From: a virus
Lineage: Duplodnaviria; Heunggongvirae; Uroviricota; Caudoviricetes
DNA length: 22,547 nt
Virus record (IMG/VR): IMGVR_UViG_2648501787_000004
Span: 1 to 22,547 of that record
Strand: one strand, 5' to 3'
A program made the translations under genes and the position numbers. A model generated the notes under the pieces. The model was not told where the DNA came from. It ran no database searches and worked only from the letters and a program-made list of their open reading frames with translations. Shown here piece after piece: positions 4,883 through 22,547 of this stretch (its first letter is position 1; every line of letters begins with the position of its first letter).

Positions 4883-5581
4883 TTACTGCGAAAGTTTGTT
4901 AATGGAAAGGAAGCCGCCAAAGTTGCCGACGTTATTGCGAAACTTACAACCACTCAGGCATTTGCTGCATTTATCCTTCGTGATATCGGACGTCGGCTGG
5001 TCATATTCATCAGCGACAGCCGGACCGTGATAACCGCACTCATCACCGCGATAGGTCCAGGTGCAGGTATTAGCCAGCATGATGCGCCCCGGAAAAACAG
5101 CACCGTCCGTTTCCGTCGGCGTGGACAGTACAAAAGAGGCACTGACCGCGCTCAGTTCGCTGCACTGCTCGATGCGCCAGCGGCTGATCACCTCCTGCTC
5201 CGGATCGGCGTCACTGTTTCCGTTGACGAAGTTCACCGCATCCAGAAAACGGGCGTAAACCTTACGCCTGACCACCGTTCCGCCGACCAGACTCTGCAGG
5301 TCTTCCGCCATCCCGGTGACCATTCCGTGCAGGTTAGAAACCGTCAGTGTCGGACGGGCAGCACTGCCCTTGCCGTTCAGTTCAAATCCCGCCCCCTGAA
5401 TGGGGTATGCCTGATACTGCCGCCCCTGCCAGGTAACCGGCTCACCTTTTTCGTTCTGCTCATTACAGAAAAAATAACGTTCACCACCGACCTCTGTCAG
5501 ATCGATTTCCCAGAGCACCACCTGGGCTGACTGAGTGAGGCGTGTCGTCTCATGATGTGTTTCCTGTGGAATATCCTGCAT
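4883..5581 (-). CDS. L: Tail tip assembly protein L
   Basis: 232 aa, near-colinear with lambda L by recall (MQDI.QET...VVLWEIDLTEVGGERYFFCNEQNEKGEPVTWQGRQYQ...CSKCLSGCKFRNNVGNFGGFLSINKLSQ). Confidence 0.9.
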   Translation of the reverse strand: MQDIPQETHHETTRLTQSAQVVLWEIDLTEVGGERYFFCNEQNEKGEPVTWQGRQYQAYPIQGAGFELNGKGSAARPTLTVSNLHGMVTGMAEDLQSLVGGTVVRRKVYARFLDAVNFVNGNSDADPEQEVISRWRIEQCSELSAVSASFVLSTPTETDGAVFPGRIMLANTCTWTYRGDECGYHGPAVADEYDQPTSDITKDKCSKCLSGCKFRNNVGNFGGFLSINKLSQ

Positions 5582-5590
5582 CAGAGCCTC

Positions 5591-5920
5591 CTATGCCACG
5601 ACCTGTTCAAAATCTGCCGTTATGGTTACCCACAACGCCCCCACGCTTGCCGACCATTTACGACAAACCACCCTGATCGGCTTCCAGTCATAAGGTGGCG
5701 TCCACTGAAATGCGCGGACGCCGCCGTGCCGTTCCAGAAAAGCTTTTAAAGATGGGTGTTCACATTTACGAACACGTATCGTCACGCTGTAAGTCGACAA
5801 CTGGTTATTCAGTCCCGCCGCACGACGCTGTTCATAACCATCGCCCAGCTTCACTGTCACCACTTTCGGCTCTGATACCACATTCATATCCGGGCGCACT
5901 TTCCAGTGAAACGTCTCCAT
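5591..5920 (-). CDS. M: Tail tip protein M
   Basis: 109 aa beginning METFHWKV...GDGY.QR...TYSV...WTPPY.W..I.V.C.KWS, matching lambda M by recall; its start codon overlaps the H stop by 1 nt. Confidence 0.9.
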   Translation of the reverse strand: METFHWKVRPDMNVVSEPKVVTVKLGDGYEQRRAAGLNNQLSTYSVTIRVRKCEHPSLKAFLERHGGVRAFQWTPPYDWKPIRVVCRKWSASVGALWVTITADFEQVVA

Positions 5921-8900
5921 TACCGATATGCTCCACTTAACCGACCACCATCACGGGCCTGCTGTTGCATAAAGTCCGCTGCCGCTTTTTTCCCAAGGTC
6001 ATAAACCACCTTCAGGGCAGCCGGACCTATCTGCCCGTTCGTGCCATCGTTATTGATCTCGATGTTGTACTGCGGGGCAAACATCGCCATACCTGAACCA
6101 CCAATATCCGCCACAACCCCCAGCTTACCGTCAGCACCACGACGCAGTGGCAGAATGGCTTCAGGTCCAGCTTCCCCCATCACACCCGCGCCTTTTGCAA
6201 AAGCAAAAAACGTCGGACGGTTAACCACCGTGCCACTGTAGCGACTCAAATCAGCAGACTGATAAACACCGCCATCCGCATTTGGTGTCACACTGGCAGC
6301 TGCTGCACTCCCCCAGCCAAACGCCGAACCAATCCCCTTCACTGCCTGCATCATGACCATCTGCGACATGATTTTTGCCAGATCAGAAAGGAGCGAGGCG
6401 GTAAAAGATCTGAAGTTCAGTTTTCCGGTGGTACAGAACGTCGCCAGTGCATTACCTGCACTGTTAAATGCCGCTGTAAACATCTGCTCAGCGGTACCTG
6501 CTGCGTTATCCGCACTCTCTGTAAAATTCTGAAACGCCCGCATGGCACCGTTTTTCCAGTCTGCCTGCATCAGTTCCTGTTCCTGCCAGTAGCGTCTGTT
6601 TTCGTTCAGTTGCCGGTTAAGGCTGTCTGTCAGCATCTGCTCAGCATTCCGGTATTCATCTGTGCCGTATGTTCCTTTCTGTTTACTGTCACGCTCCAGT
6701 TGCTCCATCTGCTGCTGATATTTTTGCTGCAGGCTGAACTGTGTCTGGTACCGCTGACGCTGCTTATCTCCCATTCCTGTTGTGGCGATATCCAGGTCAT
6801 GTTGCTGACGCAGAGCCCGTTCCTCTTCCGCCAGCTGGCTGGCAAGCTGAATGGATTTTTTCTTCAGGTCATTCAGCGCCGTCTGCTTCTGCAGCTCCTG
6901 CTGTTTTGCATCCAGCAGCGTCAGTGCCTGAATCAGCTCATCCTTATGCGCCAGCACGCTTTTTTCATCTGCTGTCAGCTTTTTACCCGCCAGGTCACTG
7001 ATACGCTGCTGCAGGGCCAGAAGCTGCTTATGCGCCTCTGTCATTTTTTCCGTGGTCAGTCCCGCGGACTGTCTGGCGGCGGCGATCTGCCCCTCCACCT
7101 GCGCCTGCTGCTGACTGTACTGCAACAGCAACCGGGTGGCTTCATCATTGCGGTTTTCAGATGTTTTTTTCTTAATGGCTTTCTCGTAACGTTCATTTTC
7201 ACGTTGTATCGCCGCATCCCTGACAGCCTGATCGGCGTACTGCATGGCATTAATACGCGCAATTTCACGCTGATGTCGTGCTGCTTCCGTTTCATTCATC
7301 CGGTTCAGTGCAGCATTTTCAGCATTACGGCGTTTCTGTTGCTCCTGATAATTCCGCTCTGCCTGCTCTTTTGCATCCTGCAAATCCTTCTGGCGTTTTT
7401 TCTCCTGAAGATCGTTAAGACGCTGCTGATCGTATTCAACCTGAGAAGATGATGCCGTCCAGGGGAGTCTTTTCGCCCGCGACACTTTCTCCTGTAAAGC
7501 GGCAATCTGTTCATCCAGCGAGTCTTCACGACCAATATTCATGGCCGCATCCCAGAAACGACTCCATAAATCAGACAGATACTTCAGCGTACTGCCCAGC
7601 GCATTGAGGTTATTATCAATATCCGCAGTACGCCGACCGGTTTCCTCTGCCAGTGCAGACATGGCTATCCGTGCCGCATCACTGGACCGCCCCTGATCCC
7701 CAAGGACGCGTATCTGCTCAAGCTGAGTGGCAGTAAGAAAATGCAGCTCATTGTCCAGAGCCTTCGCGGCATTTACAGGATCATCCTTCAGCCGCTTAAA
7801 CTGATTTATGGTATCGCTGACCGACTGGCCAACCGATCGCTCCATCTTTGCGGCAGCTCTCGCCACCATACCGATATCGTTTCCACGAAATGCACCACTC
7901 CCCACCACCTGAGCCAGCGCACCGGCTGCAGCATGTTGCGTGATACCATTCCCGGAAATAGCACGACTGAGCGTCCACAGCTGCCCGGCAGTGACTCCGG
8001 CATAATGCCCCGTCAGTGACAGCTGGCGGTTAAATTCTTCCCCCTCCTTCTGACCGTCATACCAGGCTTTACCCAGACCATAGACGGCCGCGGCAATACC
8101 GCCAATAACCCCGCCCAGCATCATGCCTTTCGGTGACATCAATGTGTCTATCCACCCGGCACGGTTAGCCAGCGTTATTCCGGATCCCCTCAGCGCACCT
8201 AAATTTCCGCGGGCCAGTTCACCTATCAGAACGCCTATCTCCTGACGGGCCGCTGCACTTTTCAGACCCAGCGAATGCGTGGCTTTTCCTGCCTGCTCCA
8301 TTTTGCGGATATACACTTCTGCAGCACTGCTTACCCCCAGCTGGGCAGCCTTAGCACGAAGCAACTCAGAAGAAGAAAGATTCTGGCGGGTTGCCTGCTC
8401 TTTAAGCTGACGGATAAACGCCACTTTCTGTCGGGTAGCCTCTTCCTCAGCCTGTGTAAGAACACGGGTTTTCGCCGTAACCTCAGAAATCAGCGCCAGA
8501 TAATCCTGCTGACCAATCCCGCCACTGTTTCTGGCCTGTCGGATCTGCTGCTGAATACGCTGTAATTCCTGCAGCCCCGCACTGGCCTGTTTCACACTGT
8601 CAATCTGACGATAAAACGCAGCAGCCGCTTTATCCTGAGCCTCCGCCAGAGCCATGGCCTGCGCCTGTTCCTCGCGCATTTTCTGGCTCAGCGCCTCCAT
8701 GCGCTGGCGGGTTTTCTCCACCTCGCGGGCCATGCGTTCATGAGCCTGTGCGTTCTTCTCCACCGTCTGCGCATGGACGGATGCGGCTGTTGCAGCCGAA
8801 GAAGCCGCCTGCGTTGTCTGCCGGGCGGCCTGAGTCTGACGCTCCATAAAACGCTGCATACGGGCAGAAGACCGTTCTGCATCGCTGGCTGCACCATTCA

Positions 8901-12173: not shown

Positions 12174-14132
12174 TTACGCCGTACATTTCACCAGACCGCG
12201 GTGATCAACTGGCGCGACACCGGCGTCAATACGCACTTTCGTTGTCACGCCATCCACACTGAAGCCCTCCATCTGATCAATATATGGCGTATCCACACCG
12301 TTGAGATAAGCCACTTCAATCGTATCGGAGCCTTTTGACGCAGCCAGGTAGAAGGTGGTCTGGCTGTTATCATCAAGACGAGGCTCTGCAATAACGGTCG
12401 CAAAATCTTTCACCGGGTTAATAATACCGGCGTTAATGTCAGCCCCCTTGACACTTGAGGAGCGAATGACCTGGTTAGCAACAGACTCCATCGCCGTCGG
12501 TACCAGTACGAACGCAGGACGAATATTCAGATGACGCTCCCCCTCTTTCTGAACGCGCATCAACTGGCGGGCTTTATCCAGCGATGCCACGTCCATTGCA
12601 GCGCTCTCCAGTACGTTTGCATGTTTCGCTTTATCGAACAGACTTACATTATCTGTGGAGATTTTCGGGTTAGACGTCAGAATGGCATAAACCAGATCGG
12701 CAATAGTGGATTTCGCCGCACGGCCCAGCTTCATCGGGACATCGGTCAGCATATTCAGATCATCATTGATAATGGCCTGACGGGTGATACTGAACAGCTC
12801 GCCATAGGTCGCCAGTGCAATAGTGGCCTGTTTATCTCCGGTGGTGACGTATTTATATTCCGCCCCTTCACGCACCTGACGCAGAGCACTGAAGCCCCCC
12901 ATACCCACACGATGGGCAATTTTAAAATCAGACAACTGACCTTTCCGCGTCCACTGTTCATAGGTTTCAGGGGCATCTTCCCAGCCCTGCAGAATGGCTT
13001 TGTTCGCAACATCCAGCAGAATATTACCGAAGTCAGACGTACTGTGTGTGAACGCCGCACCGACCATCTGCATCGGGTTATAACTGGAAATCCCAATACC
13101 CCGTTCAGTCAGTGACATACGGGCATATTCACGCAGGGTCATCCCGTTGTAGACATTATCACGTTCGGTTTTTTCAAATCCGGCACGCGCCATCAGCGCC
13201 TGGCGAATCCCGTCCCCCACAAAATTACCGTTACCGGCATAAATATGAGCCGGGGTATTTTTATTGGATGGCGTGGACTCGCGCCCCATCTCGTTCAACA
13301 GCTTTTCGCGGGCCTGCTCCAGCGAACATTCAGGATCGGCAAGACACTGAGCCTGCAGCGTCTGATAACGCCCGCCAAACATGGCAAACAGATCATTAAT
13401 ACCGTTTACACGCGCTTTTTGCTCTGCCAGTACCTGCGCACGGATGCTGTTTTCATCCACCACGGGTGCTGCTGCCTGCACTGGCGTCCGGGAGGCTGCA
13501 GGTTCATCATCCTGTACGCGTGGAGCACTGTTGCGTGGCGGAGTAATCATGTTTCGAATGGATTCCGGCATCTTTTTAAATTCCTCTGTACGTTTTGACT
13601 GAATACATGCCATTGCCTTAACGGCTGGCGTCACCTGATCAGCAAATCCATGTGCCAGACATTCGGCACCGGACATCCAGGTCTCATCCGCCAGCATGGC
13701 AGCAATTTCATCGGTGGTTTTCCCGGTTTTCTGTGCATAAGCGGGTAACAGAACCGCCTCAACCTTATCGAGCAGGTCGGCATAGGTGCGCATGTCCTCC
13801 GCATCACCGCCCGTAAAGCCAAATGGTTTATGAATCATCATGAAGGTGTTTTCCGGCATAATGACCGGGTTTCCCACCATCGCAATGACCGACGCCATTG
13901 ACGCCGCCACACCGTCGACATAAACGGTAATGGACGCACCATGTGTTTTCAGTGCATTAAAAATGGCGATGCCTTCAAAGACATCGCCACCCGGTGAATT
14001 GATATGGAGATTAATGTGGGTGATATCGCCCAGTGCATTCAGATCACTGATAAACTGCTTCGCTGTAACACCCCAGAAACCAATCTCGTCATAAATATAA
14101 ATATCCGCGTCACTCTGGTGACCAGCCTGCAT
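12174..14132 (-). CDS. Prohead protease / scaffold / major capsid fusion protein (copy 1)
   Basis: Track ORF 12174-14393 extends into the portal gene; the likely start is MQAGHQSDADIYIYDEIG (ATG 14132-14130), 14 nt after the portal stop. N-terminal ClpP/S49-like protease region (HINLHINSPGGDVFEG...VDGVAASMASV), C-terminal region with capsid-like character; ~652 aa. Confidence 0.85.
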   Translation of the reverse strand: MQAGHQSDADIYIYDEIGFWGVTAKQFISDLNALGDITHINLHINSPGGDVFEGIAIFNALKTHGASITVYVDGVAASMASVIAMVGNPVIMPENTFMMIHKPFGFTGGDAEDMRTYADLLDKVEAVLLPAYAQKTGKTTDEIAAMLADETWMSGAECLAHGFADQVTPAVKAMACIQSKRTEEFKKMPESIRNMITPPRNSAPRVQDDEPAASRTPVQAAAPVVDENSIRAQVLAEQKARVNGINDLFAMFGGRYQTLQAQCLADPECSLEQAREKLLNEMGRESTPSNKNTPAHIYAGNGNFVGDGIRQALMARAGFEKTERDNVYNGMTLREYARMSLTERGIGISSYNPMQMVGAAFTHSTSDFGNILLDVANKAILQGWEDAPETYEQWTRKGQLSDFKIAHRVGMGGFSALRQVREGAEYKYVTTGDKQATIALATYGELFSITRQAIINDDLNMLTDVPMKLGRAAKSTIADLVYAILTSNPKISTDNVSLFDKAKHANVLESAAMDVASLDKARQLMRVQKEGERHLNIRPAFVLVPTAMESVANQVIRSSSVKGADINAGIINPVKDFATVIAEPRLDDNSQTTFYLAASKGSDTIEVAYLNGVDTPYIDQMEGFSVDGVTTKVRIDAGVAPVDHRGLVKCTA

Positions 14133-14145
14133 CCTGAACCAGGAA

Positions 14146-15654
14146 TTATTCTTCGGACTGGTCGTCGGTGTGCTGCGGCTCCTGTCGTTTCGTTGCGGCA
14201 CTGCTGCCTCCTTTATCACTGGCCGGATCGGTATCAAATACCAGATCCAGCTTGCGGTTTTCATCAATTTCGGCCTTGCGCCGACGTTTGACATCATCCG
14301 GATTACGACCACCAGCACGTACCCAGTCTGATTCTGTCGCCGCTCCACCACGAATCTGGATTTTCCAGGCCTCAGCCTCCTTAACAGGGTCAATCCACGG
14401 CATCACCGGTCCGGAATACACCGCGGTATACAGTGAAGAACGGTCAAGATCGCGGGGTAGCCTGATAACACCGGATGCCACAGCCTGTTTCAGCCAGGCA
14501 CGATACATCGGGCGGGTGACGGCACCAATAAACCAGTCCTGCAGGATCAGGTAGCCATCTGTGGATTCAACCAGCTCCTGACGCTGGGCGCTGTAAGTGC
14601 CGTTATAGTTGCGTGCCGTACTGGAAAAACTCAGACGACTGCCCGCCGCCACGGCACGCAACTGACCATTACGAAAAGTTTCAAGGTTAGGATTGGGACG
14701 ATCCGACTTCACCATTCCGATTTCTTCGCCGGGTTTCAGATCGTCGTAAATAATGCCTGGCTGAATGGTAAGCTCGCGTTCATTCTCCTTGCTGCCATTA
14801 CCATCCGGTTCATAGCTCTGCCCGTCGCCTTTCCGGATGTACATCCCCAGAGCAGCGGCGACCCTTGCTGCAGTCAGCTCAGAATCTTCATACTCTTTCA
14901 GGGCACTGAGGCGGATCAGCACACCGGACAACAAAGACGTCCCGCGCATCTGGTGCAGACGGCGAACAAATTTAAGATGCAGCATTCGCTCTGCATCCAC
15001 TTCTTTGGTTTCCATCTGCCGCCAGGATACGGGACGACTTTTATACACCAGATATTTTTCGGGACGCCCCCAGTCATCAACAAACACGCCCTGATTCAGC
15101 CTGTTGCTCTCATCACTGGTCATGGGAATAAAGTCTGGCTCGAGCGCCTCCAGCCAGAAATGAACACCGGCAGAAGGCGTCAGGTTGTTTATGCGCCCGG
15201 AAACCATCTGGGCAAACACCTCACCATCGCGCAGCCAGGTACGCAACATCAGACGTTCCAGCATCGGACGGGTAAACTGCCCGGTGACTTCCGGGCTGAC
15301 AGACCATTCACTCCATCGGGTGCGTATCTCCGCTGCCAGATCACGGGCAATGGCCCCATTGCGTAATACCGGATGTGGCTCGACAATAATCCCGTTTTTC
15401 CCCACCACCCGTTCTTCCAGCTTGTCAAATACACCAATAACCAGATCGTGGTTGTTATCAAGGTAACGGGCCTGCTCACGTAACGACACGGCCCCGTACT
15501 GGCTTAACTGGTCGGCAGTTCGGTTTTCCCGCCGGGCTTTGTGTGTCCGCGTCGTTTTTACGGCCTCATAAGCCTGGATCACCGCACGGGAACGCAGCCT
15601 TGCCGCTTTCCATCCTGGTGAAAAAACGCCAATCACATCATCAAGAATTGCCAT
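14146..15654 (-). CDS. Portal protein
   Basis: Track ORF 14146-15726; the likely start is MAILDDVIGVF at ATG 15654-15652, overlapping the W stop by 1 nt (TGATG); ~500 aa, acidic C-terminal tail; position between W and the capsid gene. Confidence 0.85.
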   Translation of the reverse strand: MAILDDVIGVFSPGWKAARLRSRAVIQAYEAVKTTRTHKARRENRTADQLSQYGAVSLREQARYLDNNHDLVIGVFDKLEERVVGKNGIIVEPHPVLRNGAIARDLAAEIRTRWSEWSVSPEVTGQFTRPMLERLMLRTWLRDGEVFAQMVSGRINNLTPSAGVHFWLEALEPDFIPMTSDESNRLNQGVFVDDWGRPEKYLVYKSRPVSWRQMETKEVDAERMLHLKFVRRLHQMRGTSLLSGVLIRLSALKEYEDSELTAARVAAALGMYIRKGDGQSYEPDGNGSKENERELTIQPGIIYDDLKPGEEIGMVKSDRPNPNLETFRNGQLRAVAAGSRLSFSSTARNYNGTYSAQRQELVESTDGYLILQDWFIGAVTRPMYRAWLKQAVASGVIRLPRDLDRSSLYTAVYSGPVMPWIDPVKEAEAWKIQIRGGAATESDWVRAGGRNPDDVKRRRKAEIDENRKLDLVFDTDPASDKGGSSAATKRQEPQHTDDQSEE

Positions 15655-15872
15655 CAGAACCTCGCCAGCCGGTACCCGGGATGCCCCCGTCGTCGTGTAA
15701 TCAGAGCCGCAAGGCGGCGCTCCCACTCCTGCCGTCCCTGCCGGATCTCAGATAAGTTTTCCATGGTCATCTGCTGACCATTAAAGGTGACGGATTTTCC
15801 GTCCAGCACCGCCATTTCAGCTTCCGTATAACGCTGAATCATGGCTTCGATATCATTCTGGTTCATAACCAT
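15654..15872 (-). CDS. W: Head-tail joining / head completion protein, gpW-like
   Basis: 72 aa (or 70 from Met3); C-terminal RRRGHPGY resembles the lambda W C terminus (RRRGPAGFYV); placed between terminase large subunit and portal as in lambda. Confidence 0.6.
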   Translation of the reverse strand: MVMNQNDIEAMIQRYTEAEMAVLDGKSVTFNGQQMTMENLSEIRQGRQEWERRLAALITRRRGHPGYRLARF

Positions 15873-16975
15873 CCTCCGGAAGTCAGCCAGGGGTTAACAT
15901 CGTCAGTTACTGTTTTCTTCCGTTTTTGTTTTTTAACAGGCGTGGATACCGGTTCCGGTGAGGGTGACGGTTTGGTACTGTCCGGGACACACTCCAGCCA
16001 GGTTTCCCGGCTCGCCCATTCCGGTGCATCCGGCCAGCGGATCTTTTCGTATCCATGCAGAATGACCAGAGCCTCGGCATACACCATCAGGTCAAAAGCT
16101 TCGTTGGCACCGCGACCCGGCTTACTCCATTTCCCGTCACTGCTCCGCTCTTCATACGTCAGTTCGTCGTAAAACCAGCTCCCCAGCCAGTCAGGGAAAT
16201 GCACATAGCCGGGACCTGGAGAGTCACGCCATAACGCGTTATTCACCCGGTCTTTCAGGGCATCCGTCTGAAGAAGCCAGAGCGGCACATCACCTGCGGC
16301 CTGCGCCCGTCGGCCCGTTCGTCCGGTGTTATCAGGGAATGTACGGGTGATCAGTTTTGCGCGCCGGATGCTGTCGCCCTTAAACAAGTAAATACGTTTA
16401 CCAAGGCCATCACGACGGCAACGACGCCAGAATTTATAGGCATTATCAGTGACCCCGTCTTCACCGCCGGAATCCACCGCCATTGCCATCAGTCGCATTT
16501 GTTGAGAAGGATCGGAGGCCAGCGGCCAGCTTTTATGAAAAACATCCGTCAGCAGGACATCCCAGTCTTCCGGATAGCTGGCCGGATCAATTCGCTGGCT
16601 CTCCCCGTCGCTGTCACCGCGCAATGACTGCGTGATGTTGTAACGATCAATAATCCAGCGTTCGCCACGGCTGCCATAGCCCGTTACCTGAACCACAAAA
16701 CGGCGATGACGTCCCGCCTGCACATCAACTGTCGCCACCAGGAAATTAACGCCATCCGGCACACTGCGGGAAGGAACTGGCTCTGCCCGCTGCTCAAGCA
16801 GTTCACTTTTTCGTTGCTCCATGCTGGCACGGGGAAGATAAGGTAATCCCCAGTCGGTATTGATAACCGTCTTGAGTGTTTCTTCACTTCCGGTTGTCTC
16901 GTATTCCTGTTCTGCAGTAAGCAGTTTGTAAACGAGTTGCGAGAGTGTCTGGTAAGCAGCTGCCGGACCCTCCAT
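15863..16975 (-). pseudogene. A: Terminase large subunit, C-terminal (nuclease) domain only; N-terminal ATPase domain absent
   Basis: 370-aa ORF resembling roughly the C-terminal half of lambda gpA (e.g. VATVDVQ..., WDSKKRRNEALDCFVYA-like region ...GANEAFDLMVYAEAL). Upstream in frame there are only 11 unrelated codons before a stop (17009-17011), and the sequence above 16980 is AT-rich non-coding DNA. Confidence 0.75.
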
Positions 16976-16979
16976 CCAG

Positions 16980-17440
16980 GAAGAAGTAAATAAAAGGTAA
17001 CTAAATGATTATAAGGTACTATTGAGTTATGCCCCCTACAACATAGTCCCAGATTTAGTACCTGCTTAAGCGATAAAAAAGCCAAAAAGGAAGCAATATT
17101 AATTATTGCCGCTATGCATGATCACAATGACAAATCAGAGGCGGAATTCCGCTCTCGGAACTCACATATGAGAAACGATATTTCTTCCACCGATACCCTT
17201 TATTTGGGTATCGCGAGTAAGCCCCAAAATCTGGGTGTTACTCTTACTACCCAAACTACGGGTAGTTTCCGTAGTTTCATAGTCGAGTTGCAGATCTGCA
17301 ACTCGCCACCAGTTGCTAAGTGCATTTTTGCACTTTCGATAATATCAACCAGTTACCGCCGTAAGTGCTCCGGCTTCCTCCACTGGTAAGTATTTTTCGC
17401 GCTCTCCCTCCGTTGTTGAGAACGGCGACGGTATGCCAGC
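16980..17440. other. AT-rich, palindrome-rich non-coding segment replacing the middle of the terminase large subunit gene
   Basis: Visibly AT-rich compared with flanking genes; contains the perfect 12-bp palindrome GCGGAATTCCGC (17141-17152), hairpin CGATACCC-n7-GGGTATCG (17191-17213), inverted repeat AAACTACGG-n7-CCGTAGTTT (~17252-17276) and a perfect 20-bp palindrome GAGTTGCAGATCTGCAACTC (17285-17304). No ORF with recognisable similarity. Confidence 0.6.
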
Positions 17441-17640
17441 AACTCAAGAACTCTGGTTCGTATGTTGCGCATATCAACGCCGTTAAGCTCAATACCGTCA
17501 CGGCGCATCACCTCAGCCACCACACGCGCGTAATTTTCAGCGGTGACTGTATCCGGCTGCGCGGCCTGTTCGTCAGCCAACTGGCTGATTCCACCAGCAC
17601 AGCGGATTAATCGCAGTATTTCAGATTCGGTCATTATCAT
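17353..17640 (-). pseudogene. Short ORF translationally coupled to the small terminase gene; probably the N-terminal remnant of the large terminase gene
   Basis: Its ATG overlaps the Nu1-like stop by 4 nt (17637-17640), the position where the large terminase gene normally starts; the last ~30 codons are Arg/Gln-rich and run into the AT-rich segment, suggesting read-through into non-native sequence. Homology to the gpA N terminus is weak. Confidence 0.35.
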
Positions 17641-18122
17641 GCCTGTTTTGCGACCTCATTCACTACGTCATTTTTTACCATCCGGCTGATAATCTGATTA
17701 CGCAAATCGTCAATAATTGACTGCACTCTGTTTACTGCCATCGGTTTAAGCCCGGCATCACGTGCCAGAATATTGGGGAGTTTTGCCAGTTCCTCGCTTA
17801 CGATTTCCCCCCATATAGCCATCTCTTTTCGCACATCATCGGCGGGTATGAGTTGCGCCGTTTCCTGTTCGAACTTGAGGCGCTCACGTTCGGACTGATA
17901 CCAGGCCTTACGGTCATGTGGCTCCATTTCTTCCAGTGATGCCGGAACGGGAAGATCAAGAAAACAGGTCAGAATGTCAGTCACCCGATAGAGTTTTAGC
18001 TTGTCATGCCCTCCGGCTGGCTGGATGTTTTTCAGCCTTGCCGCCGCAGTCTGACGACATATTCCCGCTATCGCCGCCAGTTGATTAATGTTCAGCATCA
18101 GATTTTTCAGTTCTCGATCCAT
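17637..18122 (-). CDS. Terminase small subunit, Nu1-like
   Basis: Track ORF 17637-18209; the likely start is MDRELKNLMLNINQLAAIAGICRQTAAARL (ATG 18122-18120, GGAG 7 nt upstream). N-terminal helix-turn-helix followed by a charged coiled region (ERERLKFEQETAQL), laid out like lambda Nu1; first gene after a cos-like region. Confidence 0.65.
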   Translation of the reverse strand: MDRELKNLMLNINQLAAIAGICRQTAAARLKNIQPAGGHDKLKLYRVTDILTCFLDLPVPASLEEMEPHDRKAWYQSERERLKFEQETAQLIPADDVRKEMAIWGEIVSEELAKLPNILARDAGLKPMAVNRVQSIIDDLRNQIISRMVKNDVVNEVAKQA

Positions 18123-18289
18123 ACCCGCTCCAGAATGTTTTAAACATGCATCTTGCGAACAACTTTCAGAAGAGGTCAAAAAATGCGCTATATGTTGAGC
18201 ATAAAACAAGCAAAATTAACATGCCAAAAATAAAAACACTTAAAATTCAATATCATAGAAAGATGATGATGACGAATGAAAATGCAAAA
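18123..18289. promoter_or_regulatory. cosB-like AT-rich region with repeated TGCAT-containing motifs between the cos candidate and the small terminase start
   Basis: Minus strand: ...tttttGCATtttcattcgtcat...tttttggCATGttaattttgcttgttttatgc...caagaTGCATGtttaaaac...; contains TTCGTCAT and TGTTTTTATTT, which I recall from lambda cosB. Possible terminase small subunit or IHF binding sites. Confidence 0.35.
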
Positions 18290-18370
18290 ACTAGCCTTTT
18301 TCCGCGCCGCTCCCGCCTCGCGGCAGGCCACCTCACCGGGAGGACCCACCCAAAAAAGGCGACTGTCACT
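18290..18370. promoter_or_regulatory. Candidate cos site (cosQ/cosN-like GC-rich element)
   Basis: Minus strand reads GGGTCCTCCCGGTGAGGTGGCCTGCCGCGAGGCGGGAGCGGCGCGG; the GGGTCCT..CCGGTGA stretch resembles my recollection of the lambda right-end flank (GGGTCCTTTCCGGTGATCC), and the element sits ~170-250 bp upstream of the Nu1-like start. The exact nick positions cannot be assigned. Confidence 0.4.
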
Positions 18371-18432: not shown

Positions 18433-19074
18433 TCAGCGACCAATCACCACAACCTGACCACCGTCACCTTCGTCTGCCGTGCTGATCTCCTGAGAAACCA
18501 CCCGCGACCCCACACGCATTTCACCGTACAGAACAGGCACAACATTGCCCTGGGCAACCATGTTATCCAGAGAGGAGAAATAGGTGTTCTGCTTACCGTT
18601 ATCCGTGGTGCTGGCTGTTGCTGTGCTGGCTTTCGGTGCCAGCATCTGTGCAACACCACCAAGTGTCATCGCCGCCCCCATTGAAAAGAGAATGTCACTG
18701 AAAGCGATACTGATTCCTGGCATCCAGATTGCCGTAGCAATCAGCGCCGCACCAAGCACCGCCTGAAACACGCCGCCACTTTTGGCACCAGCCAGACGCG
18801 GTACGATGTGGATCACGGCACCATTTTCCAGCGGTTCATTAAGACGGGCTGATAATTCGTTTTCGCCTGTATCACGCCCGGCAATACGCACCTGATACCA
18901 ACCATCGCTCAGTTTCTGACGAAACGCTGGGATCTGCATGGCCAGCGCCCGGATGGCTTCGGCCCCCGTTTTCACATGAAGATCGATGCGGCGGCCAAAT
19001 CGTTGTAAATCCCCGTAAAGGCAGATGCGTGCCATGCCCGGTGACGCCAGAGGGAGTGTGTGCGTCGCTGCCAT
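18433..19074 (-). CDS. I: Tail assembly protein I, second copy (mosaic allele)
   Basis: 213 aa; the N-terminal ~110 aa and C-terminal ~70 aa are almost identical to the I protein at 3590-4237, while the central hydrophobic segment differs (IATAIWMPGISIAFSDILFSMGAAMT versus IAVAWWNPVGWLGAAAVSGMYAAGASMI). Confidence 0.85.
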   Translation of the reverse strand: MAATHTLPLASPGMARICLYGDLQRFGRRIDLHVKTGAEAIRALAMQIPAFRQKLSDGWYQVRIAGRDTGENELSARLNEPLENGAVIHIVPRLAGAKSGGVFQAVLGAALIATAIWMPGISIAFSDILFSMGAAMTLGGVAQMLAPKASTATASTTDNGKQNTYFSSLDNMVAQGNVVPVLYGEMRVGSRVVSQEISTADEGDGGQVVVIGR

Positions 19075-19133
19075 TTGTCGGTATACCTCTCTCGTTTGCT
19101 CAGTTGTTCAGGAATATGGTGCGGCAGCTCGCC
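18972..19133 (-). pseudogene. 3'-terminal remnant of a K gene (truncated at the duplication boundary)
   Basis: The sequence upstream of I copy 2 matches the K/I overlap of copy 1 only up to ~19133, after which it diverges; no K-like N-terminal coding sequence follows. Lower boundary inferred by offset from copy 1. Confidence 0.45.
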
Positions 19134-19163
19134 GCCCCACGTGTTCAAAGTACCGCCTTGTTG

Positions 19164-21077
19164 TCATGCTCCATTCGATTTCAGCAATCCACGATAATCG
19201 AGGGCCGCGACACCTGCATCTATGCGCACCTTCCAGGCGACACCATCAACAGTAAAGCCCACCTGCTCCTCAAGATATGGCGTATCCATACCATCAAGAT
19301 AAGCGACTTCTATTGTGTCCATCCCCTTAGCTGCGGCTACATACCATTCCTTGCTATTGGCCTTATCAAGACGTGGCTCAACAATTACTTCTGCCATATC
19401 TTTCACAACGTTAATGATGCCGGGGTTCTGATTGATAGTGCCCTCATCACCAACCGGAAAGACTGATGACGATGACAGAATGGCGCGACGCGCGGCAGAT
19501 TCCAGCGCGGCAGGGACCAGAACAAAAGCAGGGGTAATATTCAGTGAGTCGCCGTTAGCATCCTCCTGGAGGCGCATCAGCTTACGGGCTTCATCAAGCC
19601 CCACCATGTCCATATCCTTCGCAATAAGATTTTTATGATCGGCATGGAATAACGCTTTACCATCCGTAAACTTGCCGTTGCTGGTTAACAGGAGATAAAC
19701 CAGATTGCCAACTGTTCTGGCGGCTGCGCGTCCCATTGCCATGGGGATTGTAGTTAACTGGGTCAGGTCATCGTTGATAATGGCCTGACGGGTAACGGAA
19801 AAAATATTCCCGTACGTGGCCAGCGCAATAGGTACACCTTTATCGCTGGTGGTGATGTATTTATATTCCGCACCTTCCGGTACTTTATCCAGCTTTGAAA
19901 AACCATTCAGACCAACGCGCTTTGCTTCATGAAAGTTTGAAAGCGAACCGGTACGCGTCCATTTCTGGAACGTTTCGCCGCTGTCCTGCCAGCCTTTCAG
20001 TACAGATTTTTCAGCCCCACCAGCCAGAATATGAGAAAAATCACTGCTGCTGTGTGTAAAAGCCGCATTAACAACCTGCGAGCGATTAATAAAACCACTC
20101 ACAGTGATACCACGATCAACCAGTGATGCCTGGGCCATTTCAAAAAGGCTCATCATCGCGTAAGGGTTGCCTCGTTCAGGGCGTTCATACCCAAGACGGG
20201 AATAAAGCCCCTGACGAATTGCATCACCTGTTATGTTTCCGTTTCCGGCATAGATATGAGGCGGGGTATTTTTATTGGATGGCGTGGACTCGCGCCCCAG
20301 CTCGTTCAACAGCTTTTCACGGGCCATTTCCGGTGTACATGATGCATCTTCCAGACACGCCATTTTGATCCCGTCGTAACGACTGCCGAACAGGCTAAAC
20401 ACTTCACTTATTCCATTGATGCGTTTCTGTTCATTACCAGCAATATTTGCCGCTCCCTGTGGCGGTGTAATCATTCCTTTAATGGTTTCCGGCATATGTA
20501 AAAAATCTCCTGTGCGCTTCGATTCAATTCGCGCCATTGCTCTGACGGATGGCAACAATTCATCAGCAAAACCGTGCTTAAGGCATTCTTTCCCGTCCAT
20601 CCAGGTTTCATCTTCCAGCATGGCGGTAATTTCCTGTGCTGATTTGCCCGTTTTTCTGGCATAAGCAGGGACTAACACGGTTTCCACCTTATCCAGCAAA
20701 TCAGCATAATCACGCATATCACCAGCATTTCCGCCAGAGATACCCCACGGCTTATGTATCATCATCATGGCGTTTTCCGGCATCACAACACGATCGCCAG
20801 CCATTGCGACCACCGAAGCCATTGAAGCCGCAACACCATCGATATAAACCGTAATGTCTGCCGGATGATTCCGTAGCAGGTTATAGATGGCGATGCCTTC
20901 AAACACATCACCACCTGGTGAATGGATCCTCAGATTGATATGTGAAACATCGCCAAGGGCTTTCAGGTCTTCCGCGAACTGCTTTGCAGTAACACCGAAG
21001 CCGCCAATCTCCTCATAGATAGATATATCCGCCGCTCCGCGAACATCCGCCGCCTTAATGGTGTACCAGCGATTCAT
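19164..21077 (-). CDS. Prohead protease / scaffold / major capsid fusion protein (copy 2, divergent)
   Basis: 637 aa, colinear with copy 1 over its whole length but clearly diverged (by eye roughly 60-70% identity); same ClpP/S49-like motifs (HINLRIHSPGGDVFEG, VDGVAASMASV). ATG 21077-21075 with a G-rich RBS; ATGA overlap with the upstream small ORF. Confidence 0.85.
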   Translation of the reverse strand: MNRWYTIKAADVRGAADISIYEEIGGFGVTAKQFAEDLKALGDVSHINLRIHSPGGDVFEGIAIYNLLRNHPADITVYIDGVAASMASVVAMAGDRVVMPENAMMMIHKPWGISGGNAGDMRDYADLLDKVETVLVPAYARKTGKSAQEITAMLEDETWMDGKECLKHGFADELLPSVRAMARIESKRTGDFLHMPETIKGMITPPQGAANIAGNEQKRINGISEVFSLFGSRYDGIKMACLEDASCTPEMAREKLLNELGRESTPSNKNTPPHIYAGNGNITGDAIRQGLYSRLGYERPERGNPYAMMSLFEMAQASLVDRGITVSGFINRSQVVNAAFTHSSSDFSHILAGGAEKSVLKGWQDSGETFQKWTRTGSLSNFHEAKRVGLNGFSKLDKVPEGAEYKYITTSDKGVPIALATYGNIFSVTRQAIINDDLTQLTTIPMAMGRAAARTVGNLVYLLLTSNGKFTDGKALFHADHKNLIAKDMDMVGLDEARKLMRLQEDANGDSLNITPAFVLVPAALESAARRAILSSSSVFPVGDEGTINQNPGIINVVKDMAEVIVEPRLDKANSKEWYVAAAKGMDTIEVAYLDGMDTPYLEEQVGFTVDGVAWKVRIDAGVAALDYRGLLKSNGA

Positions 21078-21283
21078 TGTTCCCCCACCGATGCAAAACC
21101 ATTCTGATTAAGCCAGGTGTTTACGGCATGTCTGACAATCTGCGCCACACCTGGTAATGGTTGGTCAGGATGATGATTTATATGGTCGATCCTGTACTGC
21201 TTAAGGCGCATAACGGTCTGCGCATCCAGATGAACGGAACCACCTCTGGTATCACCTGTGTTCAGGTCATTAATACAACTCAC
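21074..21283 (-). CDS. Hypothetical small protein (69 aa), translationally coupled to capsid gene copy 2
   Basis: GTG start at 21283-21281 with GAGGAAG 6-7 nt upstream; stop overlaps the capsid-2 ATG (ATGA). No recognisable family from sequence alone. Confidence 0.45.
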   Translation of the reverse strand: MSCINDLNTGDTRGGSVHLDAQTVMRLKQYRIDHINHHPDQPLPGVAQIVRHAVNTWLNQNGFASVGEQ

Positions 21284-21385
21284 AGCAACTTCCTCTGACT
21301 GACTAAACTATGCACATTATTGATCGATAAAAGTGGTAAATAAACATATTTCTATCATAAAAACAGATTAATTAGATTCAGACAC

Positions 21386-21407
21386 AAAAAAGCCGGATTT
21401 CTCCGGC
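21386..21407 (-). terminator. Rho-independent terminator downstream of the primase gene and iteron array
   Basis: Minus strand: GCCGGA-gaaa-TCCGGC stem-loop (21392-21407) followed by TTTTTT (21386-21391). Confidence 0.65.
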
Positions 21408-21537
21408 TTCTGTCACTCGTTGCTTAAAACGGTATGTTATCCCCGTACGGATCATCATTCCCCGCCTGTTGTTTTGGTGTGCTTCGCTGTCATAGGCTTT
21501 ATCTCACAGCAGTAAATTAAAATTTTTGCGTTTTAAC

Positions 21538-21766
21538 CCTTCACCTGTTCACCTTTTGATATTTTCTCTATTAATTCATAATGTTAAGGGGTGAACAGTT
21601 TCAAAAAAACTATTCACCAACTGTTCACCACTGTTCACCCTTGAAGCTCAATAAACAATCAAAAAGGTGAACAGTGAATAGTTTGGTGAACAGTTCATAA
21701 ATAACTGCTCACCCTATAATATACTGATATAAAAGATATTTATGACAGGGTGAACAGTGGTGAACA
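21538..21766. repeat. Iteron array of TGTTCACC octamers in both orientations (P4 ori/crr-type)
   Basis: Perfect TGTTCACC at 21546-21553, 21622-21629 and 21632-21639; perfect reverse-orientation GGTGAACA at 21590-21597, 21666-21673, 21685-21692, 21749-21756 and 21759-21766; one-mismatch variants at 21611-21618, 21674-21681 and 21706-21713. Embedded in AT-rich DNA directly downstream of the primase stop. Confidence 0.75.
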
Positions 21767-21780
21767 GTTATTCCATAAGT

Positions 21781-22547
21781 TTAATTTTTGCTATCGTCAT
21801 TAGTGACCGATACACATGATGGCATCCAGTCTTCTGATTCCTCCGTCAGTGTCACGTTTGAACGCAAACCGTGCTTCGTTTTCCGTTTCATATACTCCCT
21901 GCCATATTCCGCCATTGCCCCCGGCATATCTTTACCGAAGCGCGTCAGTGTTACAGGTTTACCAAACCCATGTGCCCTCATATAAGCCAGATAGGCATGA
22001 TAGAGATACCTGCGTGGGCTGAATGGCACAATTTCAGCATTACCCACTAACAGGCCATCACACATTACCGACGCCATGAGATAGCCGCAGAAGTCCACCA
22101 GCGAATCCCCCTCTCGCTTTATCGCCAGTGCTTCTTCAGATTTCTGCTGCTCATATAACAGGCGTCTGGCTTCGTCCTGGTTAGCAAACCGTGTAAGCAG
22201 ATGGCGAATCACTACCGCCAGCTCACCTTCTATTTTTTCCGCCAGCATTGGATCACGTTCGTTCTCCGGTACAACTTCCGAAAAATTGAATATCACCCGA
22301 CGACGTGAGATCCCCCCGCTGCGGTCACTGAATGACATGGCGTTATTGTTAACCGCCAGCACTACTGCCGGAATACGCGTTGAGTAGGGGGCTTTGTGTT
22401 TCGGGTCAATTGCCACCTTGTCACCGCCTGTAATAGCCTTAATCCCTGCTCCATCACCAGCGTAGCGGGTCATATCCGGCATGATAATCAGCGAAAAGCC
22501 AACCACTAACGCGCGTTCCCTTGCATCTTCCAGCGCCTTCATGCTTG
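21781..22547 (-). CDS. Phage/plasmid primase, P4 family, C-terminal region (partial; 5' end outside the window)
   Basis: Open frame from the window edge to the stop at 21781; contains ITGGDKVAI...RRRVIFNFSEVVPENERD...IEGELAVVIRHLL, which matches my recollection of the conserved C-terminal region of P4 alpha-type primases (D5_N/primase_Cterm). Direct adjacency to TGTTCACC iterons supports this. Confidence 0.7.
   Translation of the reverse strand, partial: SMKALEDARERALVVGFSLIIMPDMTRYAGDGAGIKAITGGDKVAIDPKHKAPYSTRIPAVVLAVNNNAMSFSDRSGGISRRRVIFNFSEVVPENERDPMLAEKIEGELAVVIRHLLTRFANQDEARRLLYEQQKSEEALAIKREGDSLVDFCGYLMASVMCDGLLVGNAEIVPFSPRRYLYHAYLAYMRAHGFGKPVTLTRFGKDMPGAMAEYGREYMKRKTKHGLRSNVTLTEESEDWMPSCVSVTNDDSKN

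Follow-up and report, generated by a model that had tools for sequence, protein, structure and literature searches.

A palindrome-rich insert in a prophage terminase gene is very probably the end of a phage satellite embedded in its helper

The DNA analysed here, 22,547 nucleotides of a Caudoviricetes record that we call the window, carries a gene for the large terminase subunit (terL) that breaks off at an AT-rich segment with several palindromes (16980-17440). An earlier note on this DNA regarded the segment as structured foreign sequence that replaces the middle of the terminase gene. The questions are where such a segment comes from and what its palindromes do. The positions of the features are collected in Table 1.

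Table 1. Positions of the features found in and around the segment.
Feature	Position	Strand	Basis or remark
terL 3' half, gpA-type, endonuclease domain	15863-16979 (about)	minus	Pfam GpA_nuclease E = 3e-83, profile 6-294 of 294; in-frame join with the 5' half
CATCCAG, crossover identity block of attR	16973-16979		identical 7 bp about 10.4 kb off, where the satellite joins terL on the int side (not in the window)
Putative att arm, AT-rich, integrase-specific	16980-17111	minus	site assignments inferred from sequence
Inverted pair AGGTACTA/TAGTACCT	17014-17021 and 17056-17063		within att arm
Motif AAGCGATAA	17068-17076		within att arm; recurs in int-proximal arm
Weak terminator-like hairpin GCAATATTAATTATTGC	17093-17109		U-rich run after it on the minus strand
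Satellite tail module, non-coding	17112-17352	minus	84-94% identical in satellites that use other att sites
ORF of 91 aa	17114-17389	plus	
Hairpin h0	17138-17156		within tail module
12-nt palindrome GCGGAATTCCGC	17141-17152		
Hairpin h1, CGATACCC/GGGTATCG	17191-17213		within tail module
Conserved block of about 84 nt, CCCCAAAATCTGGG...GAGTTGCAGATCTGCAACTCG	17222-17305	minus	holds hairpins at 17246-17277 and the 22-nt palindrome
Hairpin AAACTACGG/CCGTAGTTT	17253-17277		
22-nt palindrome CGAGTTGCAGATCTGCAACTCG	17284-17305		
Hairpin h5, AAGTGCA-TTTT-TGCACTT	17318-17335	minus	stem sequence varies among satellites, pairing kept
TATCAACCAGTTA, candidate IHF site	17343-17355	plus	sole window match to IHF consensus WATCAANNNNTTR; overlaps stop codon of 95-aa gene
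95-aa protein gene, last of satellite late operon	17353-17640	minus	phrog_1561 full-length match, E = 3e-51
TerS-like DUF1441 gene of satellite	17637-18209	minus	Pfam DUF1441 E = 3e-36; phrog_141 'terminase small subunit'
Helper-like segment upstream of satellite terS	18267-18347	minus	92.6-93.8% identity over 81 nt to A20 helper and mEp460 terS-upstream regions
Captured lambda tail-I gene	18433-19074	minus	Pfam
ClpP/major-capsid fusion of satellite	19164-21077	minus	Pfam
Primase (D5-type), C-terminal part	21781-22542	minus	Pfam

The segment is AT-rich as claimed, that is, its G+C content is 0.39-0.45 over 16980-17360 as against about 0.55-0.58 in the flanks. The elements with dyad symmetry named in the earlier note, the two hairpins among them, were all found where it had located them. 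Its palindrome is perfect as described, but the length is 22 nt rather than 20 bp, and among 300 shuffles of the window that kept its composition, 2 contained a perfect palindrome of at least 22 nt. The 12-nt palindrome is also present but is not surprising by itself, and we rejected it as a separate signal because palindromes of at least 12 nt occur at chance frequency (five observed against 5.2 expected).

The prediction of RNA structure on both strands, proposed earlier as a check, showed strong folding of the 241 nt at 17112-17352. The folding energy was -82.5 kcal/mol on the plus strand and -89.1 kcal/mol on the minus strand, against means of -50.3 and -58.6 for dinucleotide shuffles, a gap of about 30 kcal/mol on each strand (z = -7.15 and -7.02, respectively), and 0 of 200 shuffles folded equally well. 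A scan with the covariance models of Rfam 15 at E <= 10 gave just three chance-level matches (E = 2.6-5.7), far under the gathering scores, and a search of the segment against 50,697 phage records in a distant mode gave no match. The statement that there is no convincing ORF is correct for the plus strand, where the 91-aa ORF is unconserved because a stop codon interrupts related copies (alignment judged by eye), but it fails at 17353-17440, which is the 3' end of a real minus-strand gene.

From comparison with related genomes, we think that 16980-17360 is very probably the int-distal (attR) end of a PICI-type phage satellite of about 10 kb that lies in the gpA-type terL of a helper prophage. 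The insertion was deduced from genomes that are 94-100% identical over the junction; the integrase and the terL 5' half fall outside the window. Over the segment itself, E. coli B1-56 is 100% identical. The closest complete genome is that of E. coli A20, which is 96% identical over 95% of the window. In A20, the terL 5' half is found about 10.4 kb further on, past the satellite integrase. On its coding strand, the A20 element carries integrase, HTH, BRO-N, Icd-like, DUF4222, primase, ClpP/MCP fusion, tail-I, DUF1441 and the 95-aa gene in this order, and beyond it there are a 'terminase large subunit, missing C-terminus', the helper DUF1441 terS, KilA-N and lysis genes. The equivalent of the terL 3' half has the RefSeq name 'terminase gpA endonuclease subunit, missing N-terminus'. 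That is, the terminase middle has not been replaced: nothing is deleted, and terL is split with both halves present around the satellite. The opinion that the segment does not look like a deletion scar agrees with this result, as the stretch appears to be a satellite end and the terL frame is intact after joining of the flanks.

The junction in the window (16979|16980) reads ...GGACCCTCCATCCAG|GAAGAAGTAAAT..., and the int-side junction of A20 reads ...AATGTACCCTACATCCAG|AATGACGCAATA.... A duplication at the insert boundaries, which the earlier note had suggested looking for, was found as the 7-bp core CATCCAG common to both junctions. When the outer flanks were joined in silico, an uninterrupted terL frame was obtained (...GDPRRSRIASFWMEGPAAAYQTL... 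/ ...RIASFWMEGPAAA...), and phages mEp460, Ayreon, phi458 and others have this joined sequence of 403 nt as a contiguous part of terL, at 99.5-99.8% identity. Intact terL genes are without the segment, and it is not a native part of them. The restored terL (attB) is predicted to read ...CCCTCCATCCAGAATGACGC.... In the TerL of mEp460, the ATPase domain occupies residues 41-304 and the nuclease domain residues 326-644, and the crossover falls at about codon 329. Judged from these sequences, the insertion point is the junction of the ATPase and nuclease domains, and satellite and terL point the same way.

The satellite integrase possesses Arm-DNA-bind_3 (arm-binding), Phage_int_M (central) and Phage_integrase (catalytic) domains, and the satellite would have been inserted into the helper terL by this P4-type tyrosine integrase. 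The int-side junction GTACCCTACATCCAG|AA was found in two diverged helper terL lineages, the product of the second being about 71% identical. Because the identical junction adjoins this second, diverged lineage, we think that the site recognised by the integrase is a conserved one that codes for FWM. Among 5,426 complete E. coli genomes, 81 (about 1.5%) have the full junction, O157:H7, O121 and O145 strains among them. According to the published model of helper-embedded PICIs, a helper with a split terL would make no TerL as long as the satellite stays in place.

Since the edge of the window cuts the satellite, what can be seen of the split locus is the 3' half of terL together with 5.6 kb of the satellite at its int-distal end. 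To the left of the terL 3' half there are genes for a small head protein, a portal, a ClpP/capsid fusion and tail proteins, all on the minus strand, and the satellite genes in the window share the strand of the terL 3' half. In two related loci (L001 and L002) the satellite genes are likewise on the terL strand, save for a small ORF of the YlcI/YnfO family and, in L001, one more small hypothetical ORF. The remainder of the satellite in the window (18433-22547) is also backed by the annotation of equivalent loci in relatives. The product of the TerS-like gene of the satellite is about 70% identical to that of the helper's own terS (tblastn), and the ClpP/capsid fusion of the satellite is only 56% identical to that of the helper in the window. 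For the cos site of the satellite, the best candidate is the stretch of helper-like DNA that precedes the satellite terS.

The last gene of the putative late operon encodes the 95-aa protein. Since the match to phrog_1561 covers its full length, this ORF belongs to a complete, separate protein family, and the possibility that it is the N-terminus of a terminase was ruled out. Its homologues form 862 protein clusters, none of which is named; one homologue is the last gene of EcCICFT073, and of two scans of species-representative genomes with the protein, the first gave nothing and the second one Shigella locus. The C-terminus of the protein is strongly basic. It has no match in Pfam or NCBIfam, just a marginal match to BrxA in PADLOC (E = 0.007), and nothing under E = 0.5 in a sequence search of the PDB. 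Its AlphaFold model is of low confidence (pLDDT 67), with no Foldseek match under E = 2.6. It has been reported that c1503 (rppA) of EcCICFT073 inhibits lambda and that other genes expressed alone did not, the clones of the latter being unnamed in the paper (PMC6739421). The EcCICFT073 homologue of the 95-aa protein is presumably among these non-inhibiting genes (PMC6739421).

The non-coding end of the satellite has two parts. The first is the AT-rich stretch next to terL. In megablast searches, 16976-17111 was restricted to the 81 genomes with the terL junction, and because it occurs only together with this junction, we regard it as specific to this integrase. Besides the inverted pair listed in Table 1, it carries the motif TTATCGCTT, of which the int-proximal arm has a second copy; in the attP that we reconstructed, the two are at -98 and +111 relative to the core. 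Its position and sequence suggest that this arm would bind the integrase and possibly IHF. The stretch 16980-17111 may also contain the end of the satellite transcription unit. The AT-rich terminator-like hairpin with its U-rich tail (17074-17109, minus strand) was no better than shuffles (z = -0.79), and a consensus scan of 16800-17700 for an intrinsic terminator with a G+C-rich stem and a U run gave none.

The second part is the tail module. Partial megablast matches to it adjoin phrog_1561-like genes in cf-PICIs at hpt and tqsA. Followed on the minus (coding) strand, the order is the stop codon of the 95-aa gene, a unit of IHF consensus and hairpin, and a block of about 84 nt that opens with the 22-nt palindrome. 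After the block come further hairpins, the weak terminator-like element, the AT-rich att arm, CATCCAG and the terL 3' half. TATCAACCAGTTA, where IHF may bind, forms with h5 one 'CTAACnnGTTGAT + hairpin' unit, of which the hairpin is variable. The same unit is repeated two to six times in the tails of other satellites, EcCICFT073 and the capE-type L033 among them. The variants of h5 are compensatory: it is helix 9 in our alignment, and both sides changed in 5 of 7 pairs. At the base of h1, a compensatory exchange of C-G to U-A was seen between copies.

These tails resemble in their layout the BIME/REP elements of E. coli, in which palindromic units and an IHF site lie in transcribed 3' intergenic regions. 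The likeness consists in arrays of short hairpins together with the IHF consensus. In contrast to BIME/REP elements, the units found here are satellite-specific, and no resemblance to the REP consensus was noticed by eye.

The block itself is nearly invariant in 42 unique copies, whereas the flanks on either side are mosaic in the alignment. In a sample of loci selected via the 95-aa protein and not via the block, the nucleotide diversity (pi) was 0.0285 for the block, 0.12 for the adjacent gene and 0.196 for the third codon positions of the gene. That is, the block varies 4-7 times less than the adjacent gene, and a bait-selected sample gives the same picture. The only variant of the palindrome that we saw is a change of the central G to A, with both arms intact. 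The strand of the block is that of the gene in all 36 copies compared. Among 54 tails of at least 350 nt each, picked by the 95-aa protein, 34 contain the full block, 1 contains a part of it and 19 (35%) contain none. EcCICFT073 and 11capE, the founder of the helper-embedded PICIs, do not have it either; it is present in a Salmonella PICI that carries a lambda-type Nu1 small-terminase gene. Because the block is optional in this way (19 of the 54 tails and EcCICFT073 are without it), it is not essential to the satellite life cycle.

Several functions could be excluded from these data. The contexts of the block comprise four packaging types and at least four att sites, and because it coexists with all of them, the block is neither cos nor part of att. 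The distance from the block to the att core ranges from about 245 to more than 500 nt among satellites, and this variation also means that it is not part of att. In lambda, an AT-rich attP arm with repeated motifs lies by a short core, and a structured RNA (sib) lies across att from int. The AT-rich arm, the repeated motifs and the short crossover core are found here too. However, in the excised circle the hairpin block precedes int, whereas sib lies downstream. Since its distance from the core varies among satellites, the block is neither a component of the arm nor an analogue of sib. A protein-coding function was rejected for both strands: starts and lengths differ among copies, and there is no third-position bias in any frame when the alignment columns are judged by eye.

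We tentatively favour, with clearly less than even confidence, the reading that the block is a structured element of the 3' untranslated region with a role at the RNA level, as its position and sequence suggest. That is, the hairpins would act as RNA at the structured 3' end of the satellite late operon, for example as a stabiliser, a processing site or a termination barrier. The block always lies downstream of the last gene, on the coding strand. RNAalifold gave -32.9 kcal/mol and 41 pairs for the operon sense, and -25.1 kcal/mol and 24 pairs for the opposite sense. The three commonest C/T polymorphisms of the block remain G-U pairs in the operon sense. Because of these three results, the evidence leans slightly to an RNA-level role in the operon sense. 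On the other hand, with so little variation in the block, the covariation term of RNAalifold amounts to a tiny -0.65 kcal/mol, and in Salmonella the hairpin h2 has lost pairs without compensation. Moreover, one frequent polymorphism favours the opposite strand (in the plus sense, UA in 29 and UG in 10), and the invariant arms of the palindrome would suit a protein-binding or recombination site equally well.

This last point leads to a second reading, in which a dimeric protein or a site-specific recombinase binds the block as DNA, especially at its 22-bp palindrome. The block would then be an operator, or a joint at which satellites swap tail and late modules; we give this reading a real but minor chance of being right. 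The palindrome consists of inverted arms of 8-9 bp around a central AGATCT, like simple tyrosine-recombinase or operator sites, and its arms are unchanged in every copy, with the central G to A as sole variant. The fully symmetric spacer, however, would give a recombination site no direction, and conservation extends about 60 nt past the palindrome, which is beyond the needs of a simple operator. The boundaries of the mosaic flanks coincide with the edges of the block, and two copies of the block lie about 434 nt apart in some tails; with its variable spacing of about 245 to over 500 nt to the att core, the block nevertheless lies outside att. A capE-type helper-embedded PICI retains only the palindrome and about 15 nt, beside arm-type repeats, and the identical 24 nt are also part of a KilA-N gene on a viral contig of 50 kb that is otherwise unrelated. 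The neighbouring 95-aa protein with its strongly basic C-terminus might be the binder, but its model is of low confidence (pLDDT 67) and has no fold match.

We consider it unlikely that the block is the gene of a small non-coding RNA carried as cargo at the accessory end, such as a trans-acting sRNA or an RNA-based toxin/antitoxin or defence module. Its strong structure, its conservation 4-7 times above that of the adjoining coding gene, and the absence of third-position substitution bias in any frame (variable columns by eye), because of which we regard the block as not protein-coding, are all consistent with such a gene. It is also optional and located where PICIs carry accessory genes (HEPN and DUF262 in the founder 11capE). 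But no promoter-like or terminator-like signal brackets the block on either strand, no credible Rfam family was matched at E <= 10, and the strand evidence is mixed. The sole consistent neighbour is the 95-aa gene, and this gene exists without the block too.

A packaging site of the satellite (cos or pac) is a very improbable reading of the palindrome-rich block. The packaging genes are close to the block, which stands where the late operon ends, and lambda cosN sites are partly two-fold symmetric. In addition, published work (PMC10111431, discussion) puts PICI cos sites in roughly this region of the island. However, the block accompanies quite different packaging genes, namely DUF1441 with a helper gpA (the window), P27-TerS/TerL/HNH of cf-PICIs, the Nu1 type (Salmonella) and those of a capE-type helper-embedded PICI, and 35% of the related tails are without it. 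EcCICFT073, in which cos1 and cos2 have been mapped, has a lambda-type cosN elsewhere and no block. The block has no similarity to any of the 50,697 phage records; compared with the terS-upstream (cos-proximal) DNA of the helper it gave no match, and the helper match falls instead at 18267-18347, which fits better. A search of the window for the lambda cosN GGGCGGCGACCT gave chance-level matches only, none of them in 16980-17440.

We give almost no credence to a deletion scar filled in with DNA from elsewhere, to the remains of an intron or homing endonuclease, or to a miniature transposable element. In their favour, the segment is foreign in composition and breaks the terL frame at that very place. 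But terL is split and not deleted, the empty site is intact in phages, the full satellite is present in complete genomes, and the Rfam scan at E <= 10 gave no credible match to an intron or any other known RNA family. Nothing in these data suggests a target of a homing endonuclease. The suggestion of a miniature mobile element was half right, as the segment appears to be the end of a mobile element with CATCCAG at both junctions, but one of about 10 kb that carries an integrase. A MITE was rejected: the left ends of the copies differ (about 17112, 17187 or 17222), the copies always lie in satellite tails on the gene strand, and genomes have them at a median of one place, in step with the number of satellites.

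The reading of 16980-17360 as a satellite end can be compared with known systems. Helper-embedded PICIs (HE-PICIs) were described in 2023 by Tommasini, Mageeney & Williams in NAR Genom Bioinform (PMC10111431), with 14 sites, large-terminase genes among them (A:Terminase_1:132, 245 and 246). The present element resembles them in the four-zone layout (Int/HTH, Bro, primase/SSB, captured late genes), as judged by annotation, in the interruption of a late gene of a lambdoid prophage with no replacement sequence that restores the target, and in the co-orientation of key satellite genes with the interrupted gene. The match of its HTH protein to HTH_17 (AlpA/HTH_17 zone) is weak (E = 0.004, 17.8 bits, below the 27-bit cutoff). 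The element differs from HE-PICIs in its target, a gpA-type terL (GpA_ATPase/GpA_nuclease), a family absent from the published attL and attR files. It also differs in its integrase, which is 25% identical to the founder integrase (Eco567.11capE), and this low identity suggests a separate lineage. The doubled arm motif of HE-PICIs, tgTGTATTGCa (tgTGTATTGCantgTGTATTGCa, at about -81 and +132 in attP), is absent from both arms here; in the capE-type L033, which served as control, four copies were found. Because the published survey covered only close relatives of one integrase (PMC10111431), we class the element as a further helper-embedded PICI by structural definition, possibly of independent origin.

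EcCICFT073 and the cf-PICIs at hpt and tqsA (Fillol-Salom 2018, 2019; Alqurainy 2022 preprint) share with it the primase module, phrog_1561 as the last gene and a non-coding tail with hairpin units, and the 84-nt block is near-identical in many E. coli PICIs and cf-PICIs. In contrast, they lie in chromosomal genes (phoQ, hpt, tqsA) and not in a late gene of a helper, and EcCICFT073 is without the block. The tail block, the hairpin/IHF units and phrog_1561 are unmentioned in those published accounts of these PICIs, cf-PICIs and HE-PICIs that were consulted, and the sequence of the palindrome is not printed in any paper found by our literature search.

Taken together, the helper-embedded satellite is a known phenomenon, and the terL(gpA) site is new compared with the published att-site files. 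It is a possibility, clearly short of probable, that the block is a previously undescribed cis-acting or RNA element common to otherwise unrelated E. coli and Salmonella satellites (PICIs, cf-PICIs and helper-embedded PICIs), which could be the partner site of the phrog_1561 95-aa protein or a regulatory or anti-helper RNA of the satellite, and that the satellites embedded in terL(gpA) represent a second, independently evolved integrase lineage targeting a helper late gene.

The finding changes the annotation of such loci. What appears to be a degraded terminase gene with junk DNA would be a prophage packaging enzyme that an embedded satellite holds hostage. Many E. coli and Salmonella satellites carry at their end a sharply conserved non-coding block that is linked to a 95-aa protein. 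The targets of helper-embedded satellites now include a terminase gene of the gpA type, reached by an integrase that shares only 25% identity with the founder, which suggests that the strategy of embedding in the helper arose more than once.

The conserved non-coding block of about 84 nt in the satellite tail was found in variant forms. In L032, L045, L060 and L071, which are among the loci compared, a deletion of 9 nt occurs at the equivalent of window 17262-17270, and the tandem GTAGTTTC(C) repeat is left one copy shorter. This deletion destroys the 9-bp hairpin AAACTACGG/CCGTAGTTT and leaves the alternative hairpin ACTACCC/GGGTAGT intact. The two hairpins are mutually exclusive, and only ACTACCC/GGGTAGT is kept universally.

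The block is also duplicated. Two copies lying about 434 nt apart are present in the tails of several hpt capsid-forming PICIs, namely L036 (at 9562 and 9996), L008, L014, L024 and L053. Inspection of the sequences showed that one of the two copies carries a central G-to-A variant in L008, L014, L024 and L053; in L036 the palindrome is exact in both copies. The paired blocks could be the leftover of tandem satellites, or could have arisen by duplication via the block.

The tail of EcCICFT073, the satellite of strain CFT073 (L077), is built differently. Its last gene is a homologue of phrog_1561, the family of the 95-aa last-gene protein of the satellite in the window. The palindrome block is absent from the 550-nt tail of EcCICFT073 (L077 14156-14700), which instead holds three tandem units made up of CTAACnnGTTGAT and a variable hairpin. 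The conserved portion of these units matches the IHF consensus on the opposite strand. EcCICFT073 also has two copies of a lambda-type cosN (L077 13055-13075 and 13795-13815), in inverted orientation, on either side of rpp.

Many IMG/VR provirus contigs (L088-L167) end exactly 3 nt past the phrog_1561 stop codon; provirus boundary calling leaves these satellites without their att site and non-coding tail.

Separately, the 24-nt sequence CGAGTTGCAGATCTGCAACTCGCC also lies within a KilA-N antirepressor-like gene (5335-6108) on a 50-kb viral contig that is AT-rich and unrelated (L018; IMG/VR 637000226_000002); the gene encodes ...TELQICNSP... there. It is unlikely that this exact 24-mer match arose by chance.

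Coordinates of the late-gene features and the candidate cos segment
Feature	Location	Strand	Evidence
Lambda tail-assembly protein I gene	window 18433-19074	-	Pfam Lambda_tail_I, E = 3e-23
Tail-protein fragment adjoining tail-I gene	L002 30854-31015		annotation in L002
ClpP-protease/major-capsid fusion gene, satellite copy	window 19164-21077	-	
ClpP-protease/major-capsid fusion gene, helper copy	window 12174-14393	-	
G+C-rich 81-nt segment 5' of satellite DUF1441 gene	window 18267-18347	-	93% identity to helper region

The identity of the 81-nt segment is to the DNA upstream of terS in both the helper prophage and phage mEp460, whereas the surrounding genes are only about 74% identical. The segment is likely a cos site common to satellite and helper.

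In E. coli A20 (L002 5833-45000), the helper prophage around the satellite apparently has no early, immunity and replication region, and the lysis genes and a methyltransferase gene are followed almost directly by ompC. We therefore think that at least some helper-satellite composites may be defective.

The tail-I gene and the tail-protein fragment are placed between the satellite's capsid gene and its terS-like gene, and this piece of about 700 bp is missing from strain B1-56 (L001). It looks like helper late genes that were recently captured by the satellite. The satellite and helper ClpP/capsid fusion products of the same locus share only 56% identity, and the satellite may build or remodel a capsid of its own.
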